Positions 3,619 through 38,812 are shown, counted from the first letter of the stretch. The stretch: 38,812 nt of DNA from Verrucomicrobiota bacterium (GCA_040754135.1 JBFMDG010000001.1:1-38812), one strand, 5' to 3'. Notes: generated by a model from the sequence alone, not told the origin. Translations and numbers: made by a program.

Positions 3619-3717
3619 CAGGCACCACCAACTGCGCCTTGACTTTCCGTCGCATTGAGCGCTGACTCCGAAAAATCTTTAGCGGATCTAAACAATAACA
3701 GCCATCTCCCTGGGCCA

Positions 3718-17450: not shown

Positions 17451-17801
17451 AACCAATGACAGTTTCCACCGGACTTTGGATCCGGTGACCTGGATTTACG
17501 TTGCTTCTGCCCGGGCAGTAAATGGACCGAAAGTGCCATCGGGCTCAAGTCCAAAATAACTGAAAATTTCTGTGCCACCGGCCACTTTGATGTTGCTTGG
17601 AAAAAAGCGCGCTTGTTAGTTTCAGGCCGTATTTCCGCAATGACACAGCGATCGTCGTCGCACGCAGGCCTATGATCAGTGATATGCGCAACGCCGTCCT
17701 CGAAACGAATCCCTGCCGGGCAGGACAGTTACCGACCGGCCGATGGGATAGAACCCAGTTTGCGATCTGATTTTCTAACCTCCCTTCATCAAAGGAACGC
17801 C

Positions 17802-19205: not shown

Positions 19206-19288
19206 ATTGCACACCTCGGCAAACACGTCTCCACTTTTCGACTAGCTGAATTTGCAGTCATTCAACCCTTGGAAATCAAAAAACAGAA

Positions 19289-23027: not shown

Positions 23028-23123
23028 ATCGTTGAAGCGCGTGTGCGGCTCTGTCCGCACCACGGGTTGGGTTGGTTGCCCGTACATTGCGGCGATTTCG
23101 CTCCGCGCATCCGCATCATCACC

Positions 23124-24113
23124 ATGACCGGCTGGATTGGCATTTCTATCGGAGACGTCACTGGCATTGGCCCGGAGGTCACTTTGAAGGCGCTGGCGGC
23201 GAAGACTGCGTGGAACGGAACGCGGTTTTTGTTGATTGGAGATTCGGGGCATTTGCGACGATTGAATGCGCAGCTCGGGTTGAATTTGCCCCTGCAATGC
23301 TACGAGGGCCCCGAAGGCGTTGGCCGCTATTTTCTTCTGGATCCACTGCCGCCTTTGCGCGGGGAATTGGTGGCGGGTTCTCCGGCCGCGGCCCGAGCCG
23401 CTCTGGCCTGGTTGAAGGAAGGAGCGGAACGATGTCTTCGCCAGGAACTCGATGCTCTGGTGACCGCGCCGGTGAACAAGGAAGCGATTCTCCGGCTCGG
23501 CCACCCTTTTATCGGCCAAACGGAATTCCTGTCCGAAATTTCCGGAACGTCGCGAACCGCCATGATGCTCGTCGGTGACGATGGCGCTGGACATTGGCTG
23601 CGCGTCGCTCTCGTCACCACGCACGTGCCAATCAAATTCGTCTCGGATCAATTGACTCAATCCAAAATCGAAATGGTCATCGAATTGGCCGCGCAAGCCT
23701 GCCGTGATTTGGACCTTCCTCGAGCGCGCATCGGGGTCTGCGGACTGAATCCGCACGCCGGTGAAGGGGGCGAATTAGGCACTGAAGATCAAGAGCTGAT
23801 TGCGCCGGCCGTTGCCGCAATGGCCAAACGCAATGCGGATGTTTCGGGGCCATGGGCTGCGGACACCCTTTTCTATTACGCCTATCACGGAGAGTACGAT
23901 GCGGTGGTGGCGATGTACCACGATCAAGGTTTGGTGCCTTTGAAAATGATCGGTTTCGAACGAGGAGTGAATTGGACATTGGGATTGCCCTTCGTTCGCA
24001 CCTCACCAGACCATGGCACGGCCTACAACATTGCCGGGATGGGCAAAGCGAATCCTTCGAGTATGCAAGCGGCTATGGCGCTGGCCATGCAACTTGCGCG
24101 GCACGGCCGGTGA
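23124..24113 (+). CDS. pdxA: 4-hydroxythreonine-4-phosphate dehydrogenase
   Basis: PdxA motifs GDVTGIGPEV, NPHAGEGG, AMYHDQGLVPLK and RTSPDHGTAYNIAG. I chose the start at ATG 23124 (MTGWIGISIGD); the track ORF begins at an upstream GTG. Confidence 0.93.
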   Translation: MTGWIGISIGDVTGIGPEVTLKALAAKTAWNGTRFLLIGDSGHLRRLNAQLGLNLPLQCYEGPEGVGRYFLLDPLPPLRGELVAGSPAAARAALAWLKEGAERCLRQELDALVTAPVNKEAILRLGHPFIGQTEFLSEISGTSRTAMMLVGDDGAGHWLRVALVTTHVPIKFVSDQLTQSKIEMVIELAAQACRDLDLPRARIGVCGLNPHAGEGGELGTEDQELIAPAVAAMAKRNADVSGPWAADTLFYYAYHGEYDAVVAMYHDQGLVPLKMIGFERGVNWTLGLPFVRTSPDHGTAYNIAGMGKANPSSMQAAMALAMQLARHGR

Positions 24114-24218
24114 GCCTCCCTCCATCTCCATGCTCCCGCTTCAGGCCTCCGCTCACGTGAAGTCGAAGCACAGCATTCCAATCCCGGTTCTCCTGATTTA
24201 CGTGACCCTGCGCCTTCG

Positions 24219-27200
24219 TTATTCGAATGCGACCGTTATCTCGCGGGCATTCGCCGGGATCACTGTTTTTGTTTCCCGGCCGCCGGGCCATCGCACCCAG
24301 AGATGCGTCGCTTCTCGAGGCAATGTCATGACCTGCACTGGATCATCGGCGGACCAATAGCCGGAACCAGCGTGGATTTCGCGCGCTGGTCCCCAAATGC
24401 CAGCGCCTTGCCAGCGCAACGTGGCGCCAATCCCGCGCGGATTCCCCGGCAGACCACGTAAACGAATGCGAACCCCGCGACGCGAACTTTCATTCTGGAA
24501 AAGCTTCGTCGTTGCACCGTTCTGCGTCACCACCAGATCCACACGGCCGTCTCCGTTGAAATCGGACAATGCACAACCGCGCTGTTCTCCATAAACCAAA
24601 ATGCCGGATTCCTGGCCGGGCACCGATTCGAAATTCCCACTCCCATTTCCGCGCAGCCAAAGCCCGCGTCCAGCGTCGTTCCGCCACGCGTCGGGACTCA
24701 CTGCAAATAAGTTCTGGCTTAAGAACAGATCTTCGAACCCATCGCTATCGAAATCGCCAACCGCAATCCCGAACGCCGGAGCAAATTGCGCCTCTGCCGG
24801 AAGCGGGATCGCTTCAAAGCGCGAACCGCGATTGAGAAAAATCATCGATGCAAGCGTCGTCACTTCCCATCGGCGGGCACTTTTGAGCTGATCCCGAAAA
24901 AGATCTTCAACACCTGCTCGGCCAAAGGCGGCAAACGTCGTCACAGTTTCCTGCAGCAGCGGAAAGGCGGCACTGAACGCTTTGAACCCGCGTTCGGGCA
25001 CGTATTTCTGCATCCGCTCGTTACGATAACTTTCGATCAGATCGAATGTGCCGTTCTCATCGAAATCCCCGTACTCCACGCGTCGCGGTTGCGCGGGTGA
25101 GGCCGGGTACTTGTGGTTCAGCCCCCAGTTGGATGCGACGATGTCCAATCTTCCATCTCTATCGAAATCGCCTGTGGTCACACCATTCCACCAGCCGGTA
25201 AATGCGGAAAGGCCAAGTTGATCCGTGACCTCTTTGAACTCGCTGACTCCCGCGGCGCCGGCGCTGTTCTGGCGCAAGACGCGAACCGGCCCCCAATCAC
25301 AAGCGAGGACAAGTTCGACTCGGCCATCACCATCCAAATCGCTGAAGACTGCGCCACTCACCAGCCCCAAACTCGTGGCTCCGCTCCACCGTTGTTGGAC
25401 AACAAATCGCCCTCGCTCATTGCGCATGAGCAGCGAAACCGCAGGCTCGGGATATCGGCCTGCCACCGAACGGCCCCCGATAAACAAATCCAGATCGCCA
25501 TCGAGATCGACATCAGCGAATGCCAGCGGGCCCGTGCAGGAGGAAGGGCCGAGAATGCTTTCGCCGGAAATTTTACGGTTCAGATCAATAATGGCGATGT
25601 GACCTCCGTTCGTGGAGCCATCCTCGTAATTGGACAGACCGACGAACACCGTCGAGCCAAAGCCAACGATGCCGGTTTGATCTCGACCTGCGATCCGGTG
25701 GAATGGCGCTTCGCTGATAGGAGTGAAGCCTCCTTTGGTGTCGTTGCGAAAGACACTGATTTTTCCGCCGCGCCCGGTTCCGATGACCAGATCAGGCCAT
25801 TCATCACTATCGAGGTCATGCCACGCCACGCCGGGCCCGAGTTGACTGAGGCGATAGGACAACAGCGGCTGCCGCTCAAAATCATCAAAAGGATCTTCAT
25901 GATGATCATGCCTGAGCAAATCGCTGGCGTCCTTGAAAATGGCAGTTTTGACGGGGTTCGATTCTGACGCGATTAAACCGCCATCGGCTGCTTGCGTTTC
26001 TGCTTCGGCAATTTGGTAGATGCGATTCGGCATCGCATTGGTGACGAGACTCCGGTTTCCATTGCGCCAGACAACTTGAATGGCCATGGGGTTCGTGCTT
26101 GTTCCCGTGGCAAACGTGCGAATGGGGTCGTCGCTGGCCAGGTAACGCCCGCCGGAAATCATCTGTTGCGATTGCGTGACGGGGCCGCCTGTGACCGTGA
26201 TTTTGGCGCCGATTCCCGCGGTGTTTGTCATGCCTTTGAGCCGGACGGAAAGCCGCGGCGCTGAAGTTTCATTTCGGTAAATCCCCGCCGCATCATTAAG
26301 ATTATTCACCGCCAGATCGATGTCTCCATCATTGTCCAAATCGGCCAGCGCCATGCCGTGCGCCACACTCACGGTCTGAAATCCCCAGAGCTCGCTGACC
26401 CTTTCGAAGGTCAAGTCGCCGCGGTTCCGAAAAGCGACATTTGGCAGCACATGTCGATCGAACATTTTGCGGAGTTTCAGCTGTTCCAGGGGAGTGAGTT
26501 TCGTTTGCGATTTGATGACTTCAGCCTCTTGCGTGACGTCGGCATTCATGGCGTCGATTTCATGGCCGGTCGTGATGAGGAGATCTTCATAACCATCGAG
26601 GTCCACATCAAGGAACGCGGACGTCCACGACCATTCGGTGGCATTGACACCGCTGAAGCAGCCAATTTCGGCGTAGGTGTGGTCGCCGCGATTGAGGAAC
26701 AAAGTATTCCTGGAATATTGGGGACGATTTCGGATTTCGCCGATGGGCAGCATTACCGGTTTCATGTCCCCTATTTGCACCTGACGCTTCTGATGGTCGG
26801 GACTGAGCATGTCCACGACGAAAAAATCGTCGAACCCGTCGCGATTAATATCCGCAAAATCGACTCCCATCGAGAAGATGCTTGTGGAACGCACGGCTAA
26901 AGCGGGCAACGCTTTAAATCGGCCATTGCCAGTGTTGAGCCAGATGCGGTCTGGCGAATGGAAATCGTTGCAGACATAAATGTCCGGGGCACGGTCGCCG
27001 TTCATGTCGCGAAGCATCACGGATAGGCCCCAATCGTATGGAGGCGAGCGCAGGGCGTTTCCATGTTCGTCCAGAAATCGCCCATCGGTCCAGGAAACTG
27101 CGGTCATGCGGCCGCGGCCGTCATTCAGAAAAAGCGCATCGGCTTCGCCCTGCTCTTCGAGGCCATGCTTCGGATGCACGGTAAATCGACCGACCAAATC

Positions 27201-27950
27201 CGGAGCCGTCGCTGGACGGCCATCCACAGCCACCACGCGAGGATGACCGTCAATATTTTCAATCGTGAGTTTGGCATTGGGCCGATCGCGAATGGACCAG
27301 ACGCGATAGTTGGTCACATACAAGTCGAGATCGCCATCGGCATCGATATCTGCGAGGGCGCTGGACATGCCTGCTTTGTTCACGTTCAGCGGCGGATCGT
27401 ATGCTTCTCGTGTAAAGCGGCCCTTCCCATCGTTCATGTAAATAAACGTCCCGTCCGCAACCGAGTTGACGATGAGGTCAAGGTCCGAGTCGCCATCCAA
27501 ATCTGCCAATGCCGCGGCCGTTGCCAATAATCCCGGACAAGCCACACCCGCAGCTTCGGTCACATCTTCGAACTTCCAAGCTCCGGCATTTCGATAAAGC
27601 ACATTGGGAGCGTCGAGATTGCAAAAATAAAGGTCCGTAAGCCCATCGCCATCGATGTCGCCCGCGGCGACCCCTGATCCATTGAGCAGCATCGAGTTTG
27701 TGATCCAATGCGCTTCCGAAAGCACGTTGGTGAAGCGAATGCCGGTGCCGGCAGGATCGAGCAAGGTAAAACCAGCACGCCCGGTCGGACGAGGGTTGAG
27801 TTCGGCATAGCGTAAACCGCTCGCGGATTTCCAATGCAACGCCTGCACTGGTTGAACGCTCTCGGCTGCGGTGAGGCCAAATGGTCCTCGCACAATCCAG
27901 CAAACAACAATCAGAGCGAACAGGAATCGAGAACGAGGCAAGGCCGGCAT
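24219..27950 (-). CDS. Secreted CRTAC1-like protein with two consecutive units of FG-GAP/VCBS beta-propeller plus ASPIC/UnbV
   Basis: About 14 Ca-binding FG-GAP loops (GDIDGDGLTDLYFCN, ADLDGDSDLDLIVNS, ADIDADGDLDLYVTN and others). Two UnbV/ASPIC-like segments: GIGAKITVTGGPVTQSQQMISGGRYLASDD and GIGATLRWQGAG...HAGSGYWSADD. I chose ATG 27950 (MPALPRSRFLFALIVVCWIV, signal-like); the track start at 28001 is GTG. Confidence 0.85.
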   Translation of the reverse strand: MPALPRSRFLFALIVVCWIVRGPFGLTAAESVQPVQALHWKSASGLRYAELNPRPTGRAGFTLLDPAGTGIRFTNVLSEAHWITNSMLLNGSGVAAGDIDGDGLTDLYFCNLDAPNVLYRNAGAWKFEDVTEAAGVACPGLLATAAALADLDGDSDLDLIVNSVADGTFIYMNDGKGRFTREAYDPPLNVNKAGMSSALADIDADGDLDLYVTNYRVWSIRDRPNAKLTIENIDGHPRVVAVDGRPATAPDLVGRFTVHPKHGLEEQGEADALFLNDGRGRMTAVSWTDGRFLDEHGNALRSPPYDWGLSVMLRDMNGDRAPDIYVCNDFHSPDRIWLNTGNGRFKALPALAVRSTSIFSMGVDFADINRDGFDDFFVVDMLSPDHQKRQVQIGDMKPVMLPIGEIRNRPQYSRNTLFLNRGDHTYAEIGCFSGVNATEWSWTSAFLDVDLDGYEDLLITTGHEIDAMNADVTQEAEVIKSQTKLTPLEQLKLRKMFDRHVLPNVAFRNRGDLTFERVSELWGFQTVSVAHGMALADLDNDGDIDLAVNNLNDAAGIYRNETSAPRLSVRLKGMTNTAGIGAKITVTGGPVTQSQQMISGGRYLASDDPIRTFATGTSTNPMAIQVVWRNGNRSLVTNAMPNRIYQIAEAETQAADGGLIASESNPVKTAIFKDASDLLRHDHHEDPFDDFERQPLLSYRLSQLGPGVAWHDLDSDEWPDLVIGTGRGGKISVFRNDTKGGFTPISEAPFHRIAGRDQTGIVGFGSTVFVGLSNYEDGSTNGGHIAIIDLNRKISGESILGPSSCTGPLAFADVDLDGDLDLFIGGRSVAGRYPEPAVSLLMRNERGRFVVQQRWSGATSLGLVSGAVFSDLDGDGRVELVLACDWGPVRVLRQNSAGAAGVSEFKEVTDQLGLSAFTGWWNGVTTGDFDRDGRLDIVASNWGLNHKYPASPAQPRRVEYGDFDENGTFDLIESYRNERMQKYVPERGFKAFSAAFPLLQETVTTFAAFGRAGVEDLFRDQLKSARRWEVTTLASMIFLNRGSRFEAIPLPAEAQFAPAFGIAVGDFDSDGFEDLFLSQNLFAVSPDAWRNDAGRGLWLRGNGSGNFESVPGQESGILVYGEQRGCALSDFNGDGRVDLVVTQNGATTKLFQNESSRRGVRIRLRGLPGNPRGIGATLRWQGAGIWGPAREIHAGSGYWSADDPVQVMTLPREATHLWVRWPGGRETKTVIPANAREITVAFE

Positions 27951-28122
27951 GGAGAACTCAGAAGCGAATCGCGCGAAAAAAACGACAACCGCCCTGGGCA
28001 CTCTGCGGCTCGGGACAAGACGGATTCAAAACCGGATTCACGCGGTGCCAATGTGCCAGAGTCAATGATGAGGGTCCAAGAAGAAATTCGCGCACAGAAA
28101 AGGAGCGATCAGGGCGGCCTGT

Positions 28123-30066
28123 TCAGCGCACGGCCGGCGCGCGCGGGTGTGGTGCGGGAGCCGGCGATTCCAATTTTCCACTTTCAATGAGCGCAATGGC
28201 GTCGCGGGCCGGTTGGAATTCTGGATCGAGCCGAAGCGCTTCGCGGAGATGGCCGAGCGCTTCGTCGCGTCGTCCAGCCCGTGCCAAAGCCGCGCTAAGT
28301 GCCATGCGATTGGCCGGCAGATGCGGAAATTGTTTCACTTCGAATTCCAGGAATTTGGCGGCGTGCTCATATTTTCCCTGAGTAAACCAAAACAGGCCAA
28401 AATTGTGGTGCAAATGCCAATCGGTCGGATGCGATTTCAAAGCGGATTCATAGATGGAAATCGTGGCCGTCATTCCATCTTTGCGCAACCGCTCGCCTTT
28501 TTCTACCAGGGCTTGCTCGGCGCGCTTCTGCCGCGGCGCGTGATCGAGTTGATCGAGAAAAGGCGGTTTGCCGGAAAGCTGCACCATCGACAGTTCGGTT
28601 TGAAACTCGTCCCACGGTGTGAACGCCAGTCGAGCGGCACATTCTTCGCGCGAAGGCAATTTATCGTTGCCATCATTGCGCTCCGGTTTACTGAGACGTT
28701 CGCCAAGTGCCGACTCCACTGCGGCTACCCACGCCCTGGCCAGTGCATAATCGCCCTCGAACCGGAGATGAACATGTTCATAGAAAAACCTCGAACCAGG
28801 AATTCCATGGTCGCTCCATTCATGCGTAAAGAATTCCTGCTCGGCATCAAACAATTGGACGTGGCGCGCCGACCATTGATCAGCGACGCGCCGGATCACA
28901 TCGTTGACGGGGGTATCAGCGCGGAACTGAAGCGCGTCGCGATCGCGAGCCAGCACGAAATGCCGCCGGGCCTTTTCGTAATCGCCCTTTGCCATGAGCA
29001 CCTGTCCCAATCGGAAATGCAAATCGGCGAAGTGATCATCAATCTCTGCCGCGGCTTGCAGTTCGTTTAGCGCCGTTTCCCATTGGCCGGCTTGTTGGGA
29101 TTCGACGGCTTTGGCATAAGACCTTTCCCATTTTGAATTTTGTTCGGGCGTCAGATCGCGGCGATGCAGAGAAGCGAACGGTGGAGAATCTTTCAAATTC
29201 ACCGGAATGGTCGAGAGCAGGACTTTGGCGCCGAAGCGGGTCGTCACTTCGCAAATCTCATTGAGATTAGCCTCGAAGAATCGATAAACCCTGGCTCGTT
29301 TGGAATCGTCGAACGCGAGGCGGCGTTCGCGAAAGAATGCCATATCTTGCGCCGGTGAAATTCTGGGCTGGCGCTCCAGCGTGCGGGAAAGGAGCTGGCC
29401 TGTGCGGGTGGATTTAAGCTTTTGCACGAGGCGAATGGCGCAAAGGTTTTGGTTCAGCCATGTCGAATCAGGCCCAGGCGCATGGAGGCCGACGACTTCG
29501 TTGTTGCCGATGTAACAAAGAAACAAATCCGGTTGATGCCGGGCACAATCGCGGGCGATCGGGAGAATGATATGAGAATTGATGCCTCGCATTGCCGCGT
29601 TGATGACTTCAAACCGAATTTCGGGATGGCGTCGTTCCAGCATCCATTCGAGAATGCGCGCGAAACCAAACGCTGGATTGGGAGTTCCTTGCGCCGCGGA
29701 TTCCCCGAGGATGAAAATGCGAACAGTATTGGAACCTTTGGCCACCGGGAAAGAAACCGGATGCATTTTCCCACCGGCCGCCGTTTTCGAATAAAACTGC
29801 TGCGCAAAGTGATCGTTGATCGTGTAGTTCGCTCCATCCGCGGTTTTTTGGAAGAATGCCGTTGAATAACCCGAGCCGCTTATGCGCAAAGCCGCTTCCA
29901 AAAGTACGAAGATAAGGGCTGGACTAATCAACAGCGCGATCAGTCGAAAGGCCCACTTTTTCCAGGGCGGCAACGAAAGTCGATCCGAGGACCGAGCCGC
30001 GGCGATATCCGGAAGAGCAGGCTGAGATCTGGGCGAGCTGCGGCGTTGTCTTTTTCGTTTTCCCAT
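28123..30066 (-). CDS. Membrane-anchored SGNH/GDSL-type hydrolase-like protein with TPR repeats
   Basis: Basic N-terminus followed by one TM helix (WAFRLIALLISPALIFVLLEAAL). SGNH-like blocks VRIFILGESAAQG (block I), YIGNNEV (block III) and FFYEHVHLRFEG (block V-like). TPR-like helices occur internally and at the C-terminus (GQWETALNELQAAAEIDDHFADLHFRLGQVLMAKGDYEKA; GRRDEALGHLREALRLDPEF). Confidence 0.65.
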   Translation of the reverse strand: MGKRKRQRRSSPRSQPALPDIAAARSSDRLSLPPWKKWAFRLIALLISPALIFVLLEAALRISGSGYSTAFFQKTADGANYTINDHFAQQFYSKTAAGGKMHPVSFPVAKGSNTVRIFILGESAAQGTPNPAFGFARILEWMLERRHPEIRFEVINAAMRGINSHIILPIARDCARHQPDLFLCYIGNNEVVGLHAPGPDSTWLNQNLCAIRLVQKLKSTRTGQLLSRTLERQPRISPAQDMAFFRERRLAFDDSKRARVYRFFEANLNEICEVTTRFGAKVLLSTIPVNLKDSPPFASLHRRDLTPEQNSKWERSYAKAVESQQAGQWETALNELQAAAEIDDHFADLHFRLGQVLMAKGDYEKARRHFVLARDRDALQFRADTPVNDVIRRVADQWSARHVQLFDAEQEFFTHEWSDHGIPGSRFFYEHVHLRFEGDYALARAWVAAVESALGERLSKPERNDGNDKLPSREECAARLAFTPWDEFQTELSMVQLSGKPPFLDQLDHAPRQKRAEQALVEKGERLRKDGMTATISIYESALKSHPTDWHLHHNFGLFWFTQGKYEHAAKFLEFEVKQFPHLPANRMALSAALARAGRRDEALGHLREALRLDPEFQPARDAIALIESGKLESPAPAPHPRAPAVR

Positions 30067-30120
30067 GAGTGCTGAGCGGCGTAAGGCTTTATTGCGTTAC
30101 GAGTGAAGGTCCGTACGAAG

Positions 30121-30150
30121 AAAGAGACCGGACTTGCGTCCGGTCTCTTC
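30121..30150 (-). terminator. Probable rho-independent terminator after the lectin/PA14/CBM-like gene
   Basis: Perfect 11-bp inverted repeat AGAGACCGGAC (30123..30133) / GTCCGGTCTCT (30138..30148) with loop TTGC, about 25 nt downstream of the stop at 30173. On the minus strand it is followed by TTTCTTCG, which is only moderately T-rich. Confidence 0.6.
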
Positions 30151-30172
30151 TGAATCAGCTCAGGATCAGAAC

Positions 30173-33100
30173 TTAGTTATTACGCTTCACGCGACCGAAG
30201 CGCGCAGCTCGGTCGATCGGAGCATCGACGGGACTGGTGAGGCCAGTATCGACCCACGGGCCAGTCACGCTATCCGAGACTTCGAGAGTGCCGCCGCCTT
30301 CCCATTCCAGGTGGATATTTCCAGCCTGCAAGCGGAACACGGTGAACTTCGGAGGAGGCGGTGGTGCTGATGTCCTGACGAATGCCAAGTAGTCAAAGTC
30401 ACCGCTATCGGCCTTGTAGCGCAGGGTTTGAGTGCCTTCGAGATGCACAATGGACAGGTTGCCATTGCCGTCTTTCATGGCGACGAGGTCGCTCGCTCCC
30501 CAGCCACCACGATAATTGGTGCCCGGAGCGTCGAAGGTGCCGAGAAGCTCGGTCGCCTGGTTCGGTTGTGTCGGATCAGTCGTGACTCGATGCAACGTGC
30601 CATGAAGCTGGCCTGGGTTGTTGCCATCGAATGAAAGCGCGACGTAAACGTTGTAATCGCCCGCCGGGAAGGTTCGGGTGTAGTTGAAGTAATCAGGTCC
30701 GCCGATCCAGCCAATGCGGTAGTTCGCGGTCATATCCCATGTACCGCGATCTTTGCCGAGCTGGCTGCCGAATACATCTGTGGTATTCAGGTTGTCGGTG
30801 ATCTGAATGTTGTTGCCCGTCTCACCCAGACGATAGACGTTCGAATCATTCCCGTCATCGGTGACGTAATCGACACCATTGACCGCGCCGAGTCCATTGT
30901 ACGCGCCGCCGAGGTAAGGCATGACACTCGCGACATCGAGGGTCTTCCCGCTGTCGTAGTTCATGTCTTCCGCTTCAATCACGAAGTCGCCAGGGGCACC
31001 GAGTGCACCTGTCTGGAATCGAGCTGTGACAGAGAAGTTCCTGGCCGGGGTGCCATTATCTGAGAAGCTCACCGTGTAGGTGTGCCAGGAGAGCGGATCA
31101 AATGGGGTCGCCGGCAGGTATTCCACTGTCGTTACATCACCATTCTTGTTGACGGTCGCGTTCACTTCCGCTCCGTCCAGATTGAACTTGATGCTGGTCG
31201 CGTTCACCGCGGTGTCGAAGTCCTGAATCTGAACACGGATCGGTTTGTTGCGAGAGAGATAAGCACCGTTTCCAGGCGAGGCCGCCACCACCTTCGGCGG
31301 AACACCGCTCACTGGAACCAGCGTGAACCAGTCGAAGTCACCGCTCGCCATATTGAAACGAATGGTGACTCGGCCGCCAGGCAGTTTGAACACACCTTGG
31401 CTGCCATCAGGGCCGACAAGACCGACCAGGTCATTGGCGCCCCAACCAGCGCTGCCACGTGCATTGAAGTTACCGAGGCTCTTCAAGGTCTGATTGGCAG
31501 TGCCAGCTCCAGCCGTGACCAACGCCAAATTTGCATTCAATTGGCCAGGCGCGACGCCGTCGAATGAAAGCGCGGCGTAAGCGGTGTAGGTACCGGCTGG
31601 AATGGTGCGTGAGTAGTTGCCCCAGTTTCCTCCGCCAACCCAACCAATCTTGTGATTGATGGTCACTTGCCGGAATGAACCGAAGGGACCGGGACGATCT
31701 GCGCTCCAGCGATTGCCGAGCACTGAATCCATGTTCACGTTCGGACTTTCTCCGATGCGATAGAGGTTCGAATCGTTGCCGTCGTCGTTGTTGAAATCAA
31801 CGAAACGAACAGCGCCGAGATCGGCGTATGCCCCGCCTGTATAAGCCAAATCATCAGCCTCCACCTTGCTCTGGCCATTGTCGAAATCGAAATCTTCCGC
31901 TTCGACAAAGAAGGAGTTCGCCGGCAGATCAAACGGCATGACTTTGTTATGAGCGGTGTAGTCGAACGCCACGACACGCGTGGTCACAGGCGACGTCGTT
32001 TCATCGTAGCTGAGTTCAACGTTGGTTTGCGTGTTGAACCGGATTCCATATCCGCCACCCGGATCATAGGTCACGGTCGTGGTGTTGCCCGAGCGGCTCA
32101 CCGTCGCGGCCACTTCGGCGCCATTCACTTTCAATTTCACCGTGCCATCGACCACTTTCGTGTTCGCGTCAACGATGGTGATCTTGATCGGTTCTCCAGG
32201 CACGCCAATGACACCATTGCCGGCGCCAGGGCGGACGGAAGCGATATAAGCGCGATCGGTCATCGGGCCTTGGCGGTATGCCTTCAGCGAACGAGGATCG
32301 TTCACATCATTGATGAGAATCTTTGTGCCATCATCGGCGATGCTGAACCACTCAACATTATTGCCGCCTCCACCTTCTTCCCACGTGGTGCGGAACGGAT
32401 AGATACCGGCCTGGTTCACCACCAGACTGAAGATCGTGTCCGAAGCGCCGCGACCACCGTTGAATTCGCCAACTACCAGACCGCCCACTTGCCAGCGGTC
32501 CTTGGGGTTCTTGCCGACAATCGTGCGGAAACCGTCATCGCTATTCACGCCCATGCGATAAAACCCAGGCGCGGGGAATTCGATGAAGGTGATGAATTCA
32601 CCACCGATGTTGTCCGTTTGCGATGCAGGTAGAATCAAGCTCGGAATACCTGGAATCGGCTCATCTGGAAAACCGGCCCCTGAACCAAAATTTCCGTCAT
32701 TGCCGCCACCGTAGTTGATGACGTCTTCATCGAGGAAGATACCGTTGGCATCGAAGAAGGTGTTATCGGCCACGTTCGCACCCATTTCGCCAAAGATCTG
32801 GCGATCGGTGCGATCGTTGGTGTTTTCCAAACCGTGATAGGACTGATGGATGCGCACTACGAAGCCTGGCTTGGTCTTGTCCACTCCCGTGACGGCGAGG
32901 GCCGGATCAATCAGCACATAATTCGGAGCATTGAAATTGCGCACCGCCGAGACATCAACGCCGCGGCCGTCTTTGACGAAAGCTTCGACGGAATGCGCCG
33001 AGCCGGAGTCGAAACGGGTGCCAGCCGGAAGCAGGAACGTGAAGGTCGTTTCTCCGCCCGTCTTGCTACGAGTAGTTGGAGTAATGGCCGTTCCGTCCAG

Positions 33101-34219
33101 TTTGAGAGCGAGTGATGCGCTGTTGGGATCGATAACGCTCTGACCGGAATCGTTGATGGTAATCCGGAAACCGGTGGCATCGGGAAGCGAGACCGCATTG
33201 CCCCAGATGGCGGAATCGGAAGGTACCGTGATGATGTGGATGTTATCGACACCGGCAAATTCCATCGCACCACCCGTGCTGGCGCCGAAGACGATACGAC
33301 CCGGGCTAGGAAAGTAGGAAGTGGCGAGATCTTTGACGATCTGGCAACCCTTCCAGAAAACTTGGACCTTACCATCAACCGCAACCTCAATCTTCAGGGG
33401 AACCCAATTCAGCTTCGAGCCGCTGCCGGGGAGGTCGGGATCCGCCTCACCAGTGATCAAGGTGTTGCAATCCGCGACATAGTCGTAACCGGCCGGAAAG
33501 GCAACGTCAGGCATGGCGATTTGAGTGAGTTGTTTGCCATCAACACGCACGCTGATACCGCGAACATCTTGCCCGCCGTTGGAACCACCGACAGGAGCTG
33601 TGCCTGTTCCCCACGTATCGAAACCGATGGCGATACCGGTTTGGGTTCCTTCTTCAGGAAGATTGTCTTCATTACCGCCGTTGTCCTGGCTGCCGGCCCA
33701 ACCATCCGTCCGGCCACCACGGCCGGGATTCGTACCGCCCGCGATGAGCGGGATGATCGGGTCGCCGGCGCGAGCGTAATTAACGCTGAAGCCGTCGGCA
33801 GGAGGGTTGGCAAACCAGTCACCCAACTTGATCATACACTCGAAAGTAAAACTGCCGACGATCAGGCCCTCATCGAAGTCAGGGAAGAGCACGGCGCAAG
33901 ATTGACCGGTGTTATCGGTCAATTTGATAAACCCGGAGTTATTGACTCCTTCGGAATCCTTCCATTCGGCGCTGCCGACGAGGTCGAATTTCGGGTCAAG
34001 GGCTGGATCTGTGTCCAAATTGAACGTGGCTTCAGCCGCTTTGGACTGACTCATTCCGAGCATGAGCAGCGCGATCAGCGCAAGGGAGGTTTTGATCAAT
34101 TTGCATTTTCCTTCATCAACGGATCGCTGTGCCGCATGCCCCGGCCATACCGAAGCTAGCAGCCCTCGCATCCGCGAATGGAGGAACTCGCTCATAAGGG
34201 TTTTGGATTTCTTTCGCAT
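30173..34219 (-). CDS. Large secreted carbohydrate-binding-type protein: lectin/LamG-like domain, Ig-like units, a PA14-like domain and two CBM6/35-like repeats
   Basis: Signal-like segment LALIALLMLGMSQSKAAEA. N-terminal legume-lectin/LamG-like segment (GFIKLTDNTGQSCAVLFPDFD...ADGFSVNYA). PA14-like core (FPAPGFYRMGVNSDDGFRTIVG). Two homologous ~200-aa units start at FFVEAEDFDFDNGQ (31313..31918) and FVIEAEDMNYDSGK (30371..30988). The start is ambiguous: ATG at 34219, 34195 or 34171. Confidence 0.7.
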   Translation of the reverse strand: MRKKSKTLMSEFLHSRMRGLLASVWPGHAAQRSVDEGKCKLIKTSLALIALLMLGMSQSKAAEATFNLDTDPALDPKFDLVGSAEWKDSEGVNNSGFIKLTDNTGQSCAVLFPDFDEGLIVGSFTFECMIKLGDWFANPPADGFSVNYARAGDPIIPLIAGGTNPGRGGRTDGWAGSQDNGGNEDNLPEEGTQTGIAIGFDTWGTGTAPVGGSNGGQDVRGISVRVDGKQLTQIAMPDVAFPAGYDYVADCNTLITGEADPDLPGSGSKLNWVPLKIEVAVDGKVQVFWKGCQIVKDLATSYFPSPGRIVFGASTGGAMEFAGVDNIHIITVPSDSAIWGNAVSLPDATGFRITINDSGQSVIDPNSASLALKLDGTAITPTTRSKTGGETTFTFLLPAGTRFDSGSAHSVEAFVKDGRGVDVSAVRNFNAPNYVLIDPALAVTGVDKTKPGFVVRIHQSYHGLENTNDRTDRQIFGEMGANVADNTFFDANGIFLDEDVINYGGGNDGNFGSGAGFPDEPIPGIPSLILPASQTDNIGGEFITFIEFPAPGFYRMGVNSDDGFRTIVGKNPKDRWQVGGLVVGEFNGGRGASDTIFSLVVNQAGIYPFRTTWEEGGGGNNVEWFSIADDGTKILINDVNDPRSLKAYRQGPMTDRAYIASVRPGAGNGVIGVPGEPIKITIVDANTKVVDGTVKLKVNGAEVAATVSRSGNTTTVTYDPGGGYGIRFNTQTNVELSYDETTSPVTTRVVAFDYTAHNKVMPFDLPANSFFVEAEDFDFDNGQSKVEADDLAYTGGAYADLGAVRFVDFNNDDGNDSNLYRIGESPNVNMDSVLGNRWSADRPGPFGSFRQVTINHKIGWVGGGNWGNYSRTIPAGTYTAYAALSFDGVAPGQLNANLALVTAGAGTANQTLKSLGNFNARGSAGWGANDLVGLVGPDGSQGVFKLPGGRVTIRFNMASGDFDWFTLVPVSGVPPKVVAASPGNGAYLSRNKPIRVQIQDFDTAVNATSIKFNLDGAEVNATVNKNGDVTTVEYLPATPFDPLSWHTYTVSFSDNGTPARNFSVTARFQTGALGAPGDFVIEAEDMNYDSGKTLDVASVMPYLGGAYNGLGAVNGVDYVTDDGNDSNVYRLGETGNNIQITDNLNTTDVFGSQLGKDRGTWDMTANYRIGWIGGPDYFNYTRTFPAGDYNVYVALSFDGNNPGQLHGTLHRVTTDPTQPNQATELLGTFDAPGTNYRGGWGASDLVAMKDGNGNLSIVHLEGTQTLRYKADSGDFDYLAFVRTSAPPPPPKFTVFRLQAGNIHLEWEGGGTLEVSDSVTGPWVDTGLTSPVDAPIDRAARFGRVKRNN

Positions 34220-34557
34220 ACGAGTCCTTCAGTTGGATTGCAGTGGAACTGTTTCCTGCGAGTAAGCGTCATGGCCGCATTCAACGCGCACCCACACGAG
34301 AACGCGGGCATGAAACCTTACAGGCTTTTCGCTGCTGCAGGAACACATAGTGTTTGGGAACTGTCGCCAGTTGTAACCACCCCTGAGAGCGAAGGCAATA
34401 AAAAAATTCGGCGCCCCATGTTGATTTTCTTCCGCCAACCGGTCTCGCCCTGGGGCAAACAGTCTTCTTTTCGAGGCGAAGCGGACACGACCGAGTTCCC
34501 GGTCGAGCTCATTTCCAACCACATCGCCGCATGAAGCAGGCGCAAACAGATCCGGGT

Positions 34558-37500
34558 TTAATGATCACGATGCGGCGTCAATTTGCCGGCAGGATCCAGG
34601 GCAATTTCTCGGGCCGAAGATGGGATTGGAGTCGAGGTCATTTTTCCTCCGGGCCATTTGATGTGGAGGCGAACCGGTGGCCTGGGCGTAGCCAATACTT
34701 GCACGGCGCTGTTCTGTGACCAATAGCCGGAACCGAACTGGACCTCGCGCGCCGATCCGAGGCGATCCCCAAAATCCAGCCGAAGCACAGCCCCCACTCC
34801 TGAAGGATTCCCCGGCGGTCCGGCCAATCGGACGCGCAGCCCAGGCCTGGCTTGCTGGTTCTCGTAAAGCCGAGTGGCTCCGGCATTCTGCGCCACGGCG
34901 ATGTCCACGCGCCCGTCTTGATTGAAATCACTCGCGGCCGAACCGCGCTGCTCACCGTCAATTCTGATACCGGATTCTCCTGTCGATATCACATCGAACG
35001 CGCCTGAACCACGATTGCGCAAACAGAGGCCACGCCCTGCATCGCACCTCGGCAATTCCAGATGAGTCCCGAAAAGATTTTGGCTCAGGAAAATATCCTC
35101 TGCCCCATCCCCATCGAAATCAGCCACCACAAGGCCGAACACTGGAGCGCATTGGGCCTCGAAAGGCAACGGCACTGGTTGAAACTTGCCGTCGCGATTC
35201 AAAAAAAGCATCGAGGCAAGCGTGTTCGCGCTGAGTTCTTGCGGTTCCTTTTGCAACAATCCAATAAGGTCAGGCATCGTGGCCCGGCTGAAGGCGCGAT
35301 GCGTGGGAAACCGCGTCTGGATTTCCGGCAGGATCATGCCTAATACATCGAGAGGCCGCAGCGGCATCGAGACACGTCCAGTGGCATCAGACTCGGCTTC
35401 GATAATATCCATCGTCCCGCGGCCAGCGAAGTCTCCAAAAAAAATGTGCATCGGTCGCTCGGAGGAGGCGCGGTAAGGACTGTTTAAACCCCAATTGCCC
35501 GCCACGATGTCCAACTTTCCATCGCCATCGAAATCGCCCGTAGCCACTGAATTCCACCAACCGGTGAATTCGGCAAGACCCGATTCCGCAGTCGCTTCCC
35601 GCAATAGTCCGCCGTGGTTGCGGAACAAGCGCACAGGCCCCCACGCGCACGCCAGGATCAGGTCAGAAAAGCCATCCGCATCGAGATCGCTCCACACGGC
35701 GCCGCTCACCAATCCCACGCCGGATAGCGCTTGCGTGTTTTTGGAGTCGAGCTGAAACCGCACTCCATCAAATTTATAAACGCGCGAAACATCGCTGCGG
35801 GGCCATTGGGCCGGCAACGCATTCCCGCCTGCGAATAAATCCAAATCACCGTCTGCATCGAAATCAGCCAAAGCCAATGGTCCAATACTCGCATCCCGAT
35901 CAGCGATGAGATCCTCGATTTGATGCGTGGAAAGGTCGATTTGCCGAAGCGCCGATCCATTCTCCGGCCTACCTTCATAATTCGAGGACGCAACCAGAAT
36001 GGCGGAGCTCCCATTTGTTTTCGCGAAGGCGACGATACCTGCCTGGTCGCGAATGGCAGGCTGGTCGAATGGCGGTTGTGCCAGCTTCTTGAAACCGCCT
36101 TTTTTATCATTGATGCACGCGGCGAGCGAGCCTCCCCGGCCGGCGCCGATGATCAGGTCATCCCAACCATCGCCATCAAAGTCGAACCAGCATACGCTTG
36201 GGCCCAACCGGCTTTGCATGTGTGGCAAGAGTGGCTGCCGTTCGAAATCGTTAAACTCATTTTCATGATGAACGTGTGTCAGCCGAGCGCTTTGATCGGT
36301 GAACCAGGGACGATCCGATTTGAGAGCGTCGGCTGGAACGTGCGTTCCTGTTTCATCGATTTCGTAAACGCGATTGGGCTTTGCGTTCTGGATGACATTC
36401 CGGACACCGCTGCGCCAGCGAACTTCGATGGTCAGGTCATTGGTGGCAGAACCTGCGGCGAAGACGCGCAGGGTGTCATCGCACGAAAGGTATCGTCCGC
36501 CACTGATCATTTCCTGTGATTGCACCACCGGCCCGCCCGCCACCTTGATTCTGCTGCCGATGCCGCGGGTATTCGGTGAGCTGCCTTTGAGCCGCACCGC
36601 GATGCGCGCAGCAGGGGAATCGTTGCGGTAAATGGCGGCTCCCGAATTCATGTTATTGATGACCACATCCAGATCACCATCTTGATCGAGGTCGGCCAGC
36701 GCCATGCCATGCGATACTCCGCGCAAATGAAATCCCCACGCTTCACTGGCATCAAGGAAGGTGCGGTTCCCCTGGTTATGAAAAGCCAGGTTGGGCACAT
36801 CGATGCGTGGGAATTTCTGCAAGTCGGCCAAATGTTCCTCGTGTGTTTTTCCAGGCCGTCCCGTTTCCTTGAGCGTATCGGCGTCGAGCACATCGTGCTC
36901 GTGCCCATTGGTGATCAGCAAGTCTTCATATCCGTCCAGATCGACATCCATAAACACAGCGCTCCACGTCCAATCGCTGGCGGCAATTCCCGCCATTTCG
37001 GAGATCTCCGCGTAGGTTCCATCGCCGCGATTCCAGAACAGCGTATTGCGAATAACCTCAGGCCGGTACTCAGGATCAAGGATCGGAAGAGGGACGTCGC
37101 GCATGAGGGCGATATTGGCGCGTTGACGGTGCCGCGCCTCGCGATCGCGGCTCAGCATGTCCGCGACAAAAATGTCGTCGAAACCATCTCGATCGATGTC
37201 GGCCACATCAACGGCCATGGAAGACATGCTCATGTGCCGCAAAGCCAATCGAGGCAGAGCGCGAAAGCGGCGGCCGTTTTCATTCAGCCAAATACGGTCG
37301 GGCGAGTAGAAGAAATCATTGCAGACATAAAGGTCGGGAAAGGAATCGCCATTCAAATCTCGGAACAGAACTGAAAGCCCCCAATCGCGCGGTGGTTGGA
37401 CGAGCGGTTTGCCCTCCTCGTCGGCAAACGCCCCGGATGTCCACGAGATTGCGCCGAAGCGTCCTTGGCCTTTGTTGACATAAAGAAGGTCCGGTTCACC

Positions 37501-38250
37501 GACTTCGCGCAAGCGGACGCCGCTGGTCTTTGTTTCGACCGCGGCAAACCGATCGGGTGGCGTGACGACGTATTGCCCTTCCACTTTTTTGATTTCAGGT
37601 CGTTGGATTCCTGGAGGCGCATCCTTGAATGTGTTTAATCGGTAATGGGCGACATACAACTCGAGATCGCCGTCTCCATCGATGTCTCCCATTGCCATGG
37701 AGGTCGCCCCAAATTGTCGCGCCAGACCGGAGTTTGTCATTTCAGTGAATTTTCCGGAGCCTTGATTAAGGAATAACCGGGTGCCGTTGCCAATGGAATT
37801 CACGATTAAATCCAAATCTGAATCTCCATCGACATCCGCAAGGAGAGCTCCGGTGGAAAACTGGCCGTCGCACGCTACACCTGCCATTTCAGTAACGTCT
37901 TCGAATTTCCAGTCGCCGCGATTTCGGAAGAGCGCATTGGAATTTTCCAATCCGCAAAAATAGAGGTCGCAAAGCCCATCGCCATCGACATCGCCTAAGG
38001 CGACGCCCGAGCCGTTTTCGAGAATTCTGTTTCTCGCGATGGTTGTTGTTGAAAGCCGGTTGGTGAACGCAATGCCAGTGACCTCCGTTGCGAGCAGGGT
38101 GAAGCCGGTCCTTCCCTCGGGAGGAACGCGCAGGTCGCGCCACCTGAATCCCTTTTCCTCATGCCACTCCGATGCTTCCGTCTGACAAAAGCTGAGCAGG
38201 CCTATTACGGTCCAGAGGGCCGTGATCCTCAGCGTGGTACCAATGGTCAT
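34558..38250 (-). CDS. Secreted CRTAC1-like protein, paralog of 24219..27950, with the same doubled FG-GAP/VCBS + ASPIC/UnbV architecture
   Basis: Collinear with the other copy (GDVDGDGLCDLYFCG..., GIGSRIKVAGGPVVQSQEMISGGRYLSCDD, C-terminal GVGAVLRLDFGD...FGSGYWSQNS). I chose ATG 38250 (MTIGTTLRITALWTVIGLLSFCQTEA) because it forms an ATGA overlap with the stop of the upstream gene. The track start at 38310 is GTG. Confidence 0.85.
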   Translation of the reverse strand: MTIGTTLRITALWTVIGLLSFCQTEASEWHEEKGFRWRDLRVPPEGRTGFTLLATEVTGIAFTNRLSTTTIARNRILENGSGVALGDVDGDGLCDLYFCGLENSNALFRNRGDWKFEDVTEMAGVACDGQFSTGALLADVDGDSDLDLIVNSIGNGTRLFLNQGSGKFTEMTNSGLARQFGATSMAMGDIDGDGDLELYVAHYRLNTFKDAPPGIQRPEIKKVEGQYVVTPPDRFAAVETKTSGVRLREVGEPDLLYVNKGQGRFGAISWTSGAFADEEGKPLVQPPRDWGLSVLFRDLNGDSFPDLYVCNDFFYSPDRIWLNENGRRFRALPRLALRHMSMSSMAVDVADIDRDGFDDIFVADMLSRDREARHRQRANIALMRDVPLPILDPEYRPEVIRNTLFWNRGDGTYAEISEMAGIAASDWTWSAVFMDVDLDGYEDLLITNGHEHDVLDADTLKETGRPGKTHEEHLADLQKFPRIDVPNLAFHNQGNRTFLDASEAWGFHLRGVSHGMALADLDQDGDLDVVINNMNSGAAIYRNDSPAARIAVRLKGSSPNTRGIGSRIKVAGGPVVQSQEMISGGRYLSCDDTLRVFAAGSATNDLTIEVRWRSGVRNVIQNAKPNRVYEIDETGTHVPADALKSDRPWFTDQSARLTHVHHENEFNDFERQPLLPHMQSRLGPSVCWFDFDGDGWDDLIIGAGRGGSLAACINDKKGGFKKLAQPPFDQPAIRDQAGIVAFAKTNGSSAILVASSNYEGRPENGSALRQIDLSTHQIEDLIADRDASIGPLALADFDADGDLDLFAGGNALPAQWPRSDVSRVYKFDGVRFQLDSKNTQALSGVGLVSGAVWSDLDADGFSDLILACAWGPVRLFRNHGGLLREATAESGLAEFTGWWNSVATGDFDGDGKLDIVAGNWGLNSPYRASSERPMHIFFGDFAGRGTMDIIEAESDATGRVSMPLRPLDVLGMILPEIQTRFPTHRAFSRATMPDLIGLLQKEPQELSANTLASMLFLNRDGKFQPVPLPFEAQCAPVFGLVVADFDGDGAEDIFLSQNLFGTHLELPRCDAGRGLCLRNRGSGAFDVISTGESGIRIDGEQRGSAASDFNQDGRVDIAVAQNAGATRLYENQQARPGLRVRLAGPPGNPSGVGAVLRLDFGDRLGSAREVQFGSGYWSQNSAVQVLATPRPPVRLHIKWPGGKMTSTPIPSSAREIALDPAGKLTPHRDH

Positions 38251-38812
38251 GGTCGCGATGGGCGAAGTTGATTTCGCAAAATGAGAACAGACGGCCCCGC
38301 GGTCTCCCACTCGCGCGCCAAAGCGGGCGGAACAGGACTGGGACCGCGAATATATGAACCCAACACAATATCGAGATCTCCGTCTCCGTCCAAATCACCG
38401 GCGTCCATGGTCAGCCAGCGGCCGGCGAGGCATCGGGAAAATGTCCCCGCGATGAATTTCAGGTTCCCTTGATTTTCCAGGTAAACAAAACTTTCTTCAG
38501 GCGAGTTCTGGTAATCGGGAAAAAATGAAATTGCCGCCACATCCAGATCTCCATCGCCATCGAAATCACGCGGCAACGCCTTGAACGCGCCGTTCAATGG
38601 ATAAAAGAATGATTCTTCAAACCGCGTGCCGCCGCGATTCAGGTAAATCCGTATCCCATGATATTTTTTCAAGGGCGAGGGATATTCTCCGTTGTCACCG
38701 TTCGTGACGATCAAATCGAGTTGGCCATCTTGATTGAAATCGGCCATTTCAAAGTAGGTGTGCCCGATCAACGGATGTTTTTGAAAAATGGTTTCCGATT
38801 TGAACTGGCCTT
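38247..38812 (-). CDS. 3' part of an FG-GAP/VCBS repeat protein (5' end lies outside the window)
   Basis: The frame stays open to the window edge (...GQFKSETIFQKHPLIGHTYFEMADFNQDGQLDLIVTNGD...), so the track start (TTG 38771) is not the real start. FG-GAP loops include ADFNQDGQLDLIV, RDFDGDGDLDVAAIS and GDLDGDGDLDIVLG. The TGA stop is at 38249..38247. Confidence 0.75.
   Translation of the reverse strand, partial: GQFKSETIFQKHPLIGHTYFEMADFNQDGQLDLIVTNGDNGEYPSPLKKYHGIRIYLNRGGTRFEESFFYPLNGAFKALPRDFDGDGDLDVAAISFFPDYQNSPEESFVYLENQGNLKFIAGTFSRCLAGRWLTMDAGDLDGDGDLDIVLGSYIRGPSPVPPALAREWETAGPSVLILRNQLRPSRP

Follow-up and report, generated by a model that had tools for sequence, protein, structure and literature searches.

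A conserved gene cassette joining CRTAC1-like double propellers, a predicted multi-lectin protein and a CxxCH-motif propeller in uncultured Verrucomicrobiota

Results

Five minus-strand genes encode products predicted to be exported or membrane anchored

We analysed a 38,812-nucleotide stretch of DNA from a Verrucomicrobiota bacterium (GCA_040754135.1 JBFMDG010000001.1:1-38812), referred to here as the window. Five open reading frames (ORFs), which we call F, A-up, G, T and A-down, lie head to tail on its minus strand. F (38247-38812) encodes the C-terminal 187 amino acids (aa) of a partial FG-GAP protein, its gene being cut by the window end. A-up (34558-38250) encodes a protein of 1230 aa in which a unit made of an FG-GAP propeller and a UnbV_ASPIC domain occurs twice behind a signal peptide (MTIGTTLRITALWTVIGLLSFCQTEA). 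G (30173-34219) encodes an all-beta, predicted secreted multi-lectin protein of 1348 aa, and T (28123-30066) a membrane-anchored SGNH and TPR protein of 647 aa. A-down (24219-27950), the final gene of the cluster, runs convergently to pdxA (23043-24113, plus strand); its product, again CRTAC1-like, is a doubled propeller of 1243 aa bearing a signal peptide (MPALPRSRFLFALIVVCWIVRGPFGLTAAE). The stop codon of F and the start codon of A-up overlap in ATGA, and the intergenic gaps within the cluster are 338, 106 (between G and T) and 121-172 bp.

A sequence-only reading of this stretch had noted that all five products look exported or membrane anchored and that none belongs to a pathway that can be named. 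Both points are supported: N-terminal signal peptides are predicted in A-up and A-down, T has a transmembrane (TM) helix and G a hydrophobic signal core, and no named or described system fits the cluster. The positions and spacing of the five genes were likewise borne out by an ORF check, and the domain calls stood up. Pfam recovers the doubled FG-GAP and ASPIC/UnbV units of both A proteins; the description of G as a protein with lectin, PA14 and two carbohydrate-binding module (CBM)-like regions is backed by Foldseek, profiles and orthologues, with Pfam itself silent on G; and T has TPR repeats by Pfam and an SGNH domain by AlphaFold 2 (AF2) modelling, Foldseek and invariant residues, at a sub-threshold Pfam score.

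F-A-G-A is a conserved cassette

Among 8000 candidates scored, 181 G homologues were found at E<=0.001, and the few with a named source were all Verrucomicrobiota. A scan of species-representative genomes returned 272 stretches encoding G relatives, of which 77 distinct loci were kept. Nearly all of these lie in Verrucomicrobiota metagenome-assembled genomes (MAGs) from lakes, groundwater, ponds and soil, several of which hold two or three G paralogues. The MAGs that bear the cassette described below are labelled Limisphaerales, Pedosphaerales or Verrucomicrobiales.

When the ORFs around G were clustered, the only recurrent neighbours were A (58 genes in 39 loci), F (12 loci) and T (7 loci). 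In a tblastn comparison of the window proteins with 79 G loci, doubled ASPIC proteins were found in 38 and T in 8, and neither the housekeeping neighbours of the window nor its GH5-like gene in any (0/79). The genes occur in the order F>A>G>A at L005, L010 and L052 and on an independent metagenome contig (L085), and in the order A>G>A at L011 and L007; the window has the order F>A>G>A with T put in after G. At least five other genomes or metagenomes carry the F>A>G>A arrangement, although G is only 35-37% identical to the window copy there, A being 49-54% and F 64-67% identical. The next gene on the same strand is a doubled ASPIC gene for 17 of the 54 G genes that could be assessed. ASPIC blocks chained within 2.5 kb of G number 37, against 4 in 543 kb of farther flank (those 4 mostly linked via F), so that ASPIC genes are enriched at least 12-fold beside G over the more distant flank.

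The surroundings of the cassette were examined in a census of the two nearest genes per side, which comprised 82 immediate flanking genes. No Pfam family occurred in more than 2 of these 82, and no carbohydrate-active enzyme (CAZyme), TonB receptor, SusD or regulator recurred; the flanks of L084 and L085 gave the same picture. Neither a SusC-like TonB-dependent transporter nor a SusD-like gene is present in the window or among the families of the 82 flanking genes. Because its flanks are unrelated from locus to locus, the cassette is self-contained and not a polysaccharide utilization locus (PUL). We conclude that F-A-G-A is a real conserved cassette in many uncultured Verrucomicrobiota; the outcome that would have refuted the sequence-only reading, paralogues lying side by side by chance and not conserved together, did not arise for this core.

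The two A genes belong to separate positional lineages

Both A proteins match FG-GAP_3 in Pfam (A-down, 1.6e-74; A-up, 3.1e-82; 10 stretches per protein) as well as UnbV_ASPIC (PF07593; 2.9e-17 and 5.1e-15, over the 23.4-bit cutoff; two stretches per protein), and they are 50% identical to each other over their full length. The CRTAC1 structure 9etn was matched at 2.6e-14 with a single sequence and at 5.3e-33 with the family profile. The relatives retrieved from the PDB by profile were CRTAC1, the YenB propeller and integrin alpha only, all of them adhesion or matrix proteins or a toxin receptor-binding propeller. No enzyme fold or family was matched in either PDB sequence or profile searches, and an EGF-like domain is absent from the Pfam matches. 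On these matches we class the A proteins as bacterial-type homologues, not as CRTAC1 orthologues.

A neighbour-joining tree splits the A genes into an upstream and a downstream lineage. The window A-up groups with the upstream A genes of L005, L010, L011 and L052, and the window A-down with the A genes that stand downstream in other cassettes. Upstream copies share an identity of 0.59 on average and downstream copies 0.58; across the two groups the mean falls to 0.49. The two lineages are positionally orthologous across cassettes, which indicates that the duplication is old and that the copies have kept their places.

The alignment of the A family contains many invariant residues other than those of the Ca sites, such as C327, a GHExD region and an H-rich linker. 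The invariant Cys (YVCNDF) and the GHExD region lie in the first propeller. The linker that opens the second propeller carries a conserved His-rich acidic motif, H-x-HHE-x-F-D-D-F-x-R-Q-P-L-L, which in the window A-down falls at aa ~680-700 (numbering from M18), or about 25850-25910. The His-rich motif, the Cys and the GHExD region could be metal or active-site residues.

G is a predicted multi-lectin protein

Searches with the whole of G gave no match in Pfam (even at E=10), NCBIfam or PDB sequences, and the identity of its domains was therefore drawn from structure, profiles and orthologues. The AF2 model covers aa 62-1075 at a predicted local distance difference test score (pLDDT) of 79. 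An L-type (legume-like) lectin beta-sandwich (33215-34033, minus strand; aa ~63-335) was identified by Foldseek (SraP 4m00, 1.2e-9; Emp47p, VIP36, YwfG and SasG, ~1e-5) together with invariant PADGFS and FDT motifs, P140-S145 and F200-D201 being invariant in the family alignment. G orthologues match the Pfam models Lectin_L-type and Lectin_leg-like weakly and below threshold.

Immunoglobulin (Ig)-like spacers separate this domain from a PA14 lectin-type domain (32270-32902, minus strand; aa ~440-650), which was assigned by a profile match and the invariant S560-D561-D562-G563-F564. The family profile matched the solved PA14 domains of a Lap adhesin (6m8m, 3.1e-5) and MpIBP (5j6y, 5e-3), both adhesin sugar-binding domains, and the profile alignment places the invariant SDDGF, with its Ca/sugar-binding DD motif, on their DDGY. 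The Pfam PA14 model (PF07691) does not match the window G even at E=10; it matches 3 of 13 orthologues weakly and the distant homologues P0012 (36.3 bits) and P0014 (34.3 bits) above cutoff. Precomputed PA14 and GLEYA matches are present in many G homologues, and the PA14 domain of homologue P0029 corresponds to G aa 534-628.

Two CBM6/35-like modules follow (module 1, 31295-31918, aa ~768-975; module 2, 30350-30985, aa ~1079-1290; both minus strand), and they are 43.5% identical to each other (4e-52). Module 1 opens with FxxEAEDF, which is conserved family-wide; its central loop is conserved but modelled with low confidence, part of the module having a pLDDT <50. Module 2 is matched in the orthologue P0048, in which CBM_6 (1.1e-14) and CBM_35_2 map onto G aa 1166-1280; the CBM_6 and CBM_35 models of Pfam do not match the window G itself at E=10. 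No catalytic domain was detected in G, and its closest domain-sized structural matches are all adhesin or cargo lectins (SraP, SasG, YwfG and VIP36). Our best reading is that G is a non-catalytic multi-lectin protein with at least four lectin-type modules, namely the L-type lectin, PA14 and the two CBM6/35-like modules, for which sugar binding is predicted.

After a PPPPP linker, G ends in a short C-terminal module (30176-30322, minus strand; aa ~1300-1348) with conserved W1306, G1310, L1312, G1320, W1322, P1330 and R1343. The motif W..(F/Y)(F/Y/G)R is found at the end of 40 of the 67 long G proteins and of nine unrelated large secreted ORFs, one of which encodes a giant M36 protease within the window (C terminus at ~11500-11688); the module has the form L[E/Q]xSxxLxxWxxV...[F/Y][F/Y]R[L/V]... 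This module, common to G and other large secreted proteins, may be a sorting or anchoring signal.

The hydrophobic signal core of G lies at aa 44-57. The ATG at 34219 is the likely start of G, since it shares with homologues a CCTATGCG-type start context and an MR.. N terminus; an internal TTG start at 34099 was dropped on the same grounds. A k-mer search 5' of G detected no promoter motif, only this shared start-codon context and the similarity among closely related loci. Public gene calls are shorter (P0001, 1030 aa against 1348 for G; P0121, 592 aa against 647 for T). Homologues span 95-97% of the long G ORF, and the database model of G thus appears to be N-terminally truncated.

At L040, L041, L042, L056 and L070 (and L068), G proteins of ~1300-1540 aa have recurring flanking genes of about 1000, 300, 390-530, 260 and 380 aa and no ASPIC gene. 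Several MAG contigs of the L040 type are labelled Akkermansia, probably through mis-binning or mislabelling.

A terminator-like hairpin is characteristic of G genes

The hairpin that had been noticed in the 106-bp gap between G and T is present, and it has the form of an intrinsic terminator: a 13-bp GC-rich stem with a U-rich tail (30113-30150, minus strand, with the stem-loop at 30121-30150; GAGACCGGAC-GCAA-GUCCGGUCUC), about 25 nt past the G stop codon, with a dG of -37.3 kcal/mol and a z score of -3.7. A hairpin of the same type with a U tract, 20-40 nt past the stop codon, follows 64 of 77 G genes, compared with 1 of 46 A, 0 of 12 F and 0 of 8 T genes (jointly 1/66) and 26 of 318 other ORFs. 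This conservation across the family supports the earlier proposal that the cluster comprises several transcription units. Since the hairpin is specific to G genes, G would be transcriptionally insulated from A-down; the feature points to transcriptional insulation or mRNA stabilisation special to G. Over positions 23900-38812, no RNA family was found in Rfam at the gathering threshold, and matches in a sigma-70 promoter scan were no more frequent than in shuffled sequences.

Members of the F family carry a single CxxCH motif

The F fragment of the window matches FG-GAP_3 in Pfam (8.8e-22). Its full-length orthologues are about 540 aa long and consist of a single FG-GAP propeller behind an N-terminal CxxCH domain, in which the motif lies within VCxxCHxFPEPxLLDxxTWxxQxLPRM, with a conserved downstream Met; across the broader family this context reads G..LA..xC..CH..P.P.LLD..TW...xLP.M. 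An exhaustive search with the window fragment gave 21690 FG-GAP matches overall and 610 representatives at E<=1e-30. Exactly one CxxCH is present in all 104 full-length-like representatives among the best 150 of the 610, and the motif is found in all 10 cassette F genes (among them L005:4113-5885, L010:2488-4152, L052:4174-5784 and L085:4274-5911). The window F is cut short of this region, and its motif is predicted from the cassette orthologues, which are 64-67% identical to it.

No Pfam or NCBIfam model, cytochrome families included, matches the N-terminal domain of F. A word-indexed search with this putative haem domain, by a tool of limited sensitivity, gave a single short match, and FG-GAP together with CxxCH is not mentioned in the literature searched. 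F also occurs outside the cassette. On a JGI 3300047160 contig that has no G, it stands among five ASPIC genes, beside a LytTR two-component system and an ABC transporter of the MacB type; at L089:2894-11635 two PA14 proteins are encoded upstream of it, with TPR genes near and no A in view. F-A and A-G are thus overlapping but separable links, and beyond the strict cassette a looser network of neighbourhoods connects F, A, G and TPR genes.

T is an accessory SGNH/TPR gene

T matches TPR families in Pfam (up to 1.3e-13), and Lipase_GDSL_2 below threshold (24.0 bits against a cutoff of 32.9, over the first half of the model only); many of its homologues have precomputed PF13472 or PF00657 matches. 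When the T profile was run against PDB sequences, TPR matches dominated and no SGNH relative was retrieved. The AF2 model (pLDDT 87.9) is built of a TM anchor (aa 34-63), an SGNH domain interrupted by a TPR hairpin, and a TPR array at the C terminus. Its Foldseek matches are EstL5 8ik1, 7e16 and the acetyl-xylan esterase AlAXEase 7ddy (template modelling score 0.66-0.71, target-normalised), plus the TPR region of OGT. Invariant in T and its homologues (23 sequences) are G121-E-S123-A-A-x-G127, G187-N188-N189-E190 and H431/H433, so that the Ser (block I), Gly (II), Asn (III) and His (V) of SGNH proteins are conserved. Model and alignment together support an SGNH fold with conserved catalytic residues. 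The N-terminal helix comes after a basic tail and fits a membrane anchor with a periplasmic body.

The T family is very large (2402 matches at E<=0.001). In the tblastn comparison T was near G or A in 8 of the 79 loci, directly beside G in about six. Among six T homologues whose contexts were inspected, only P0123, the T gene of L001, had the arrangement of the window; P0122, P0132, P0154, P0173 and P0239 (44-55% identical to T, P0122 being the closest at 55%) stand alone in unrelated neighbourhoods. T is therefore an accessory gene inserted after G in the lineage of the window, possibly mildly enriched next to G or A and with no core link.

Other genes of the window

The remaining genes of the window are unrelated to the cluster: an amidase, a molybdopterin oxidoreductase, the M36 protease giant, priA, a PPDK_N-like gene, surA and the weak GH5-like gene, which lies 2.3 kb from the cluster. 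The M36 giant (3655-11688, plus strand; 2677 aa, secreted) combines an FTP propeptide, an M36 fungalysin metallopeptidase domain (1.1e-113), BACON_2, DUF11, Calx-beta and bacterial TSP3 repeats, an architecture unusually large for an M36 protease. The PPDK_N-like protein (14205-17456, minus strand; 1083 aa) has a hydrophobic N terminus and matches only in a central ATP-grasp region like those of PPDK_N and phosphoenolpyruvate (PEP) synthase (7.2e-15), far under every NCBIfam PEP synthase cutoff. Two minus-strand ORFs (17775-19226 and 19262-20344) were considered as neighbours and then discarded as spurious antisense frames of two plus-strand genes, 17679-19205 and 19289-20434: the minus-strand frames have odd composition and no family match, and the plus-strand ORFs opposite look real. 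One of the latter has a Gfo/Idh/MocA-like N terminus and the other a long Lys/Ala/Pro-rich, histone-H1-like C-terminal tail.

Discussion

Conservation of gene order and strand across diverged copies raises the question of what the cassette does. What follows on how the products are exported, bind glycans, assemble into a complex and attach haem, and on their biological role, is inferred. Tentatively, and with the probability falling somewhat short of even, we favour a secreted Ca-dependent complex that captures glycans or mediates adhesion, either at the outer membrane or beyond it, and is not catabolic in the manner of a PUL, with G as its variable specificity subunit. All products would be exported through Sec signals, and G would bind a glycan outside the cell, be it on a polymer, a particle or the surface of a cell. 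G diverges fastest and so is most likely the specificity subunit. The distinct positions and slower evolution of A-up and A-down fit non-redundant partner or scaffold subunits; these anciently diverged Ca-binding double propellers would act as partners of G or as its scaffold. F, translationally coupled to A-up, would contribute a single FG-GAP propeller with one haem-c site, as predicted throughout its family. The strong terminator of its own suggests that G is expressed at a level unlike that of A-down, probably a higher one. T would probably remove or transfer acyl groups in the periplasm, with a loose tie to the cassette.

Several observations weigh against this proposal. An adjacent A is present for only about a third of G genes, and one G subfamily is found in another conserved context without A (L040-L042, L056 and L070). 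G thus occurs without A, and F and A without G, which makes G and F/A separable modules. The haem-c site predicted in every F would be unexpected in a purely adhesive system and is a hint of catalysis or electron transfer. Some beta-propellers are enzymes, the PL11, PL24 and PL42 lyases among them, and a novel active site would escape sequence methods. In the literature searched, moreover, neither the cassette, nor the positional paralogy of A, nor the G-specific terminator, nor a function for bacterial ASPIC/UnbV proteins is described.

A redox-active extracellular enzyme complex, in which haem-c F exchanges electrons with A propellers that are themselves an unrecognised class of polysaccharide- or polymer-modifying enzymes and G only targets the substrate by way of its lectin and CBM modules, is an unlikely but serious alternative. 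It would account for the CxxCH and conserved downstream Met in all 104 full-length F and all 10 cassette F, for the translational coupling or tight spacing of F and A-up, for the occurrence of F amid five ASPIC genes without G at another locus, and for the invariant non-Ca residues of A (C327, the GHExD region and the H-rich linker). In other Planctomycetes-Verrucomicrobia-Chlamydiae (PVC) bacteria, CRTAC1-family genes are reported to lie between genes for haem proteins, homologues of hydrazine synthase (PMC12758564). The lectin-type modules of G are compatible with such a complex as well, CBMs being the usual companions of enzymes. CBM-bearing oxidative systems, for example a lytic polysaccharide monooxygenase with a cytochrome partner, offer an analogy. 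Against electron transfer, the A profile matches no enzyme but only CRTAC1, YenB and integrin alpha; A, G and T contain no cofactor motifs; the N-terminal domain of F matches no Pfam or NCBIfam model, cytochromes included; genes for electron transport or cofactor biosynthesis are not enriched in the flanks; and haem attachment to F is predicted from its motif. The bolder form of this idea, that F-A-G-A is an unrecognised extracellular machine in which haem-c F and the A propellers act by redox chemistry upon a glycan or some other polymer (e.g., oxidative cleavage or modification) and a rapidly diversifying G selects the substrate, we consider distinctly improbable. If true, it would give the bacterial ASPIC/UnbV (CRTAC1-like) family its first biochemical function.

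The sequence-only reading had also envisaged a module that recognises or remodels glycans, possibly acetylated ones, built on a triad of ASPIC/UnbV, SGNH/TPR and lectin proteins. Developed into a PUL-like system, this would mean that an acetylated polysaccharide is bound by G and deacetylated by T, that the ASPIC proteins help as they do in the PULs of Bacteroidota, and that the cell takes up the products. The SGNH fold of T does resemble acetyl-xylan esterases and keeps their catalytic residues, T adjoins G or A in 8 loci (G directly in about six), G has CBM-like modules and a weak GH5-like gene lies 2.3 kb off. However, 71 of the 79 loci lack T and five of the six inspected T homologues stand alone elsewhere, which leaves the triad and the acetyl-glycan idea weak; T is, besides, anchored on the periplasmic side, whereas G looks secreted. 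The GH5-like gene accompanies G in 0 of 79 loci, and the flanks have no recurrent TonB-dependent transporter, SusD, glycoside hydrolase family or regulator (no family is shared by more than 2 of the 82 flanking genes). As the cassette does not sit among CAZymes, transporters and regulators, a catabolic glycan-remodelling locus is not indicated; we rejected the PUL-like scheme, the transporters and CAZymes it calls for being missing from the flanks, and hold it to be very doubtful. Overall, the interpretation given by the sequence-only reading is partly supported.

Chance adjacency of large paralogous families (FG-GAP, PA14 and TPR) without any functional link is hardly credible: all the families are multi-copy (several G paralogues per MAG, 2402 T homologues, 21690 FG-GAP matches for the F fragment) and in the closest relatives (L001, L009 and L058) neither the place of T nor the orientation of A is constant, but at least five independent loci retain gene order and strand even where G is 35% identical, the two A lineages are positionally orthologous, ASPIC genes are at least 12-fold enriched next to G and the other genes of the window are never found with it. 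Identities of 35-55% likewise exclude near-identical copies of one mobile element.

Whatever its biochemistry, the cassette gives bacterial ASPIC/UnbV proteins defined and conserved genetic partners, namely a multi-lectin protein with recognisable sugar-binding sites and a propeller with a haem-c motif. Proteins of this family are abundant in Verrucomicrobiota, and in Planctomycetota, Acidobacteriota and Bacteroidota as well. If the cassette does encode a device for glycan capture or adhesion, it would be the equivalent, in Verrucomicrobiota, of the glycan-binding proteins on the surface of Bacteroidota and would bear on how common freshwater and soil Verrucomicrobiota engage polysaccharides and particles.

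All domains of the cassette come from known families, and it is the combination F-A-G-A that was not found in the literature searched. T shares its fold and its Ser/Gly/Asn/His blocks with SGNH/GDSL esterases (EstL5 8ik1, the Geobacillus GDSL esterase 7e16 and AlAXEase 7ddy); unlike these, it is membrane anchored, reads GES for GDS and ExxH for DxxH, has a TPR hairpin within the catalytic domain followed by a C-terminal TPR array, and scores under the curated Pfam cutoff. F resembles quinohaemoprotein-type fusions of a propeller with cytochrome c, and 'PVC-type haem-binding CxxCH' proteins, in joining a single-CxxCH domain to a beta-propeller in a PVC host. It differs in that its propeller is of the FG-GAP type and not of the pyrroloquinoline quinone (PQQ) or SGL type, its putative haem domain is N-terminal and matches no model, and it has no dehydrogenase signature.

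With the PULs of Bacteroidota, which encode surface glycan-binding proteins and sometimes ASPIC/UnbV proteins, the cassette has in common a multi-copy, fast-diverging and predicted glycan-binding component in G; it lacks adjacent SusC/SusD, CAZymes and a regulator, and host phylum and export machinery differ. G is more like the PA14/L-lectin adhesins (MpIBP and Lap-type RTX proteins; SraP, SasG and YwfG), with which it shares a PA14 domain with the DD motif, an L-type lectin, Ig-like spacers and the absence of a catalytic domain. In contrast to these adhesins, G has neither RTX repeats nor LPXTG, matching no RTX or haemolysin-type Ca-binding family in Pfam, and the window has no type I secretion system genes. 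G instead carries a Sec-type signal at its N terminus and ends in a short module of a distinct kind, adds two CBM6/35-like modules and is genetically coupled to CRTAC1-like propellers. Those propellers, finally, match vertebrate CRTAC1/ASPIC (9etn) in the succession of an FG-GAP Ca-binding propeller and a UnbV_ASPIC domain and, as predicted for A, in being secreted. They depart from it in carrying this unit twice per chain, without an EGF-like domain, and in forming two conserved paralogues on either side of a lectin gene.

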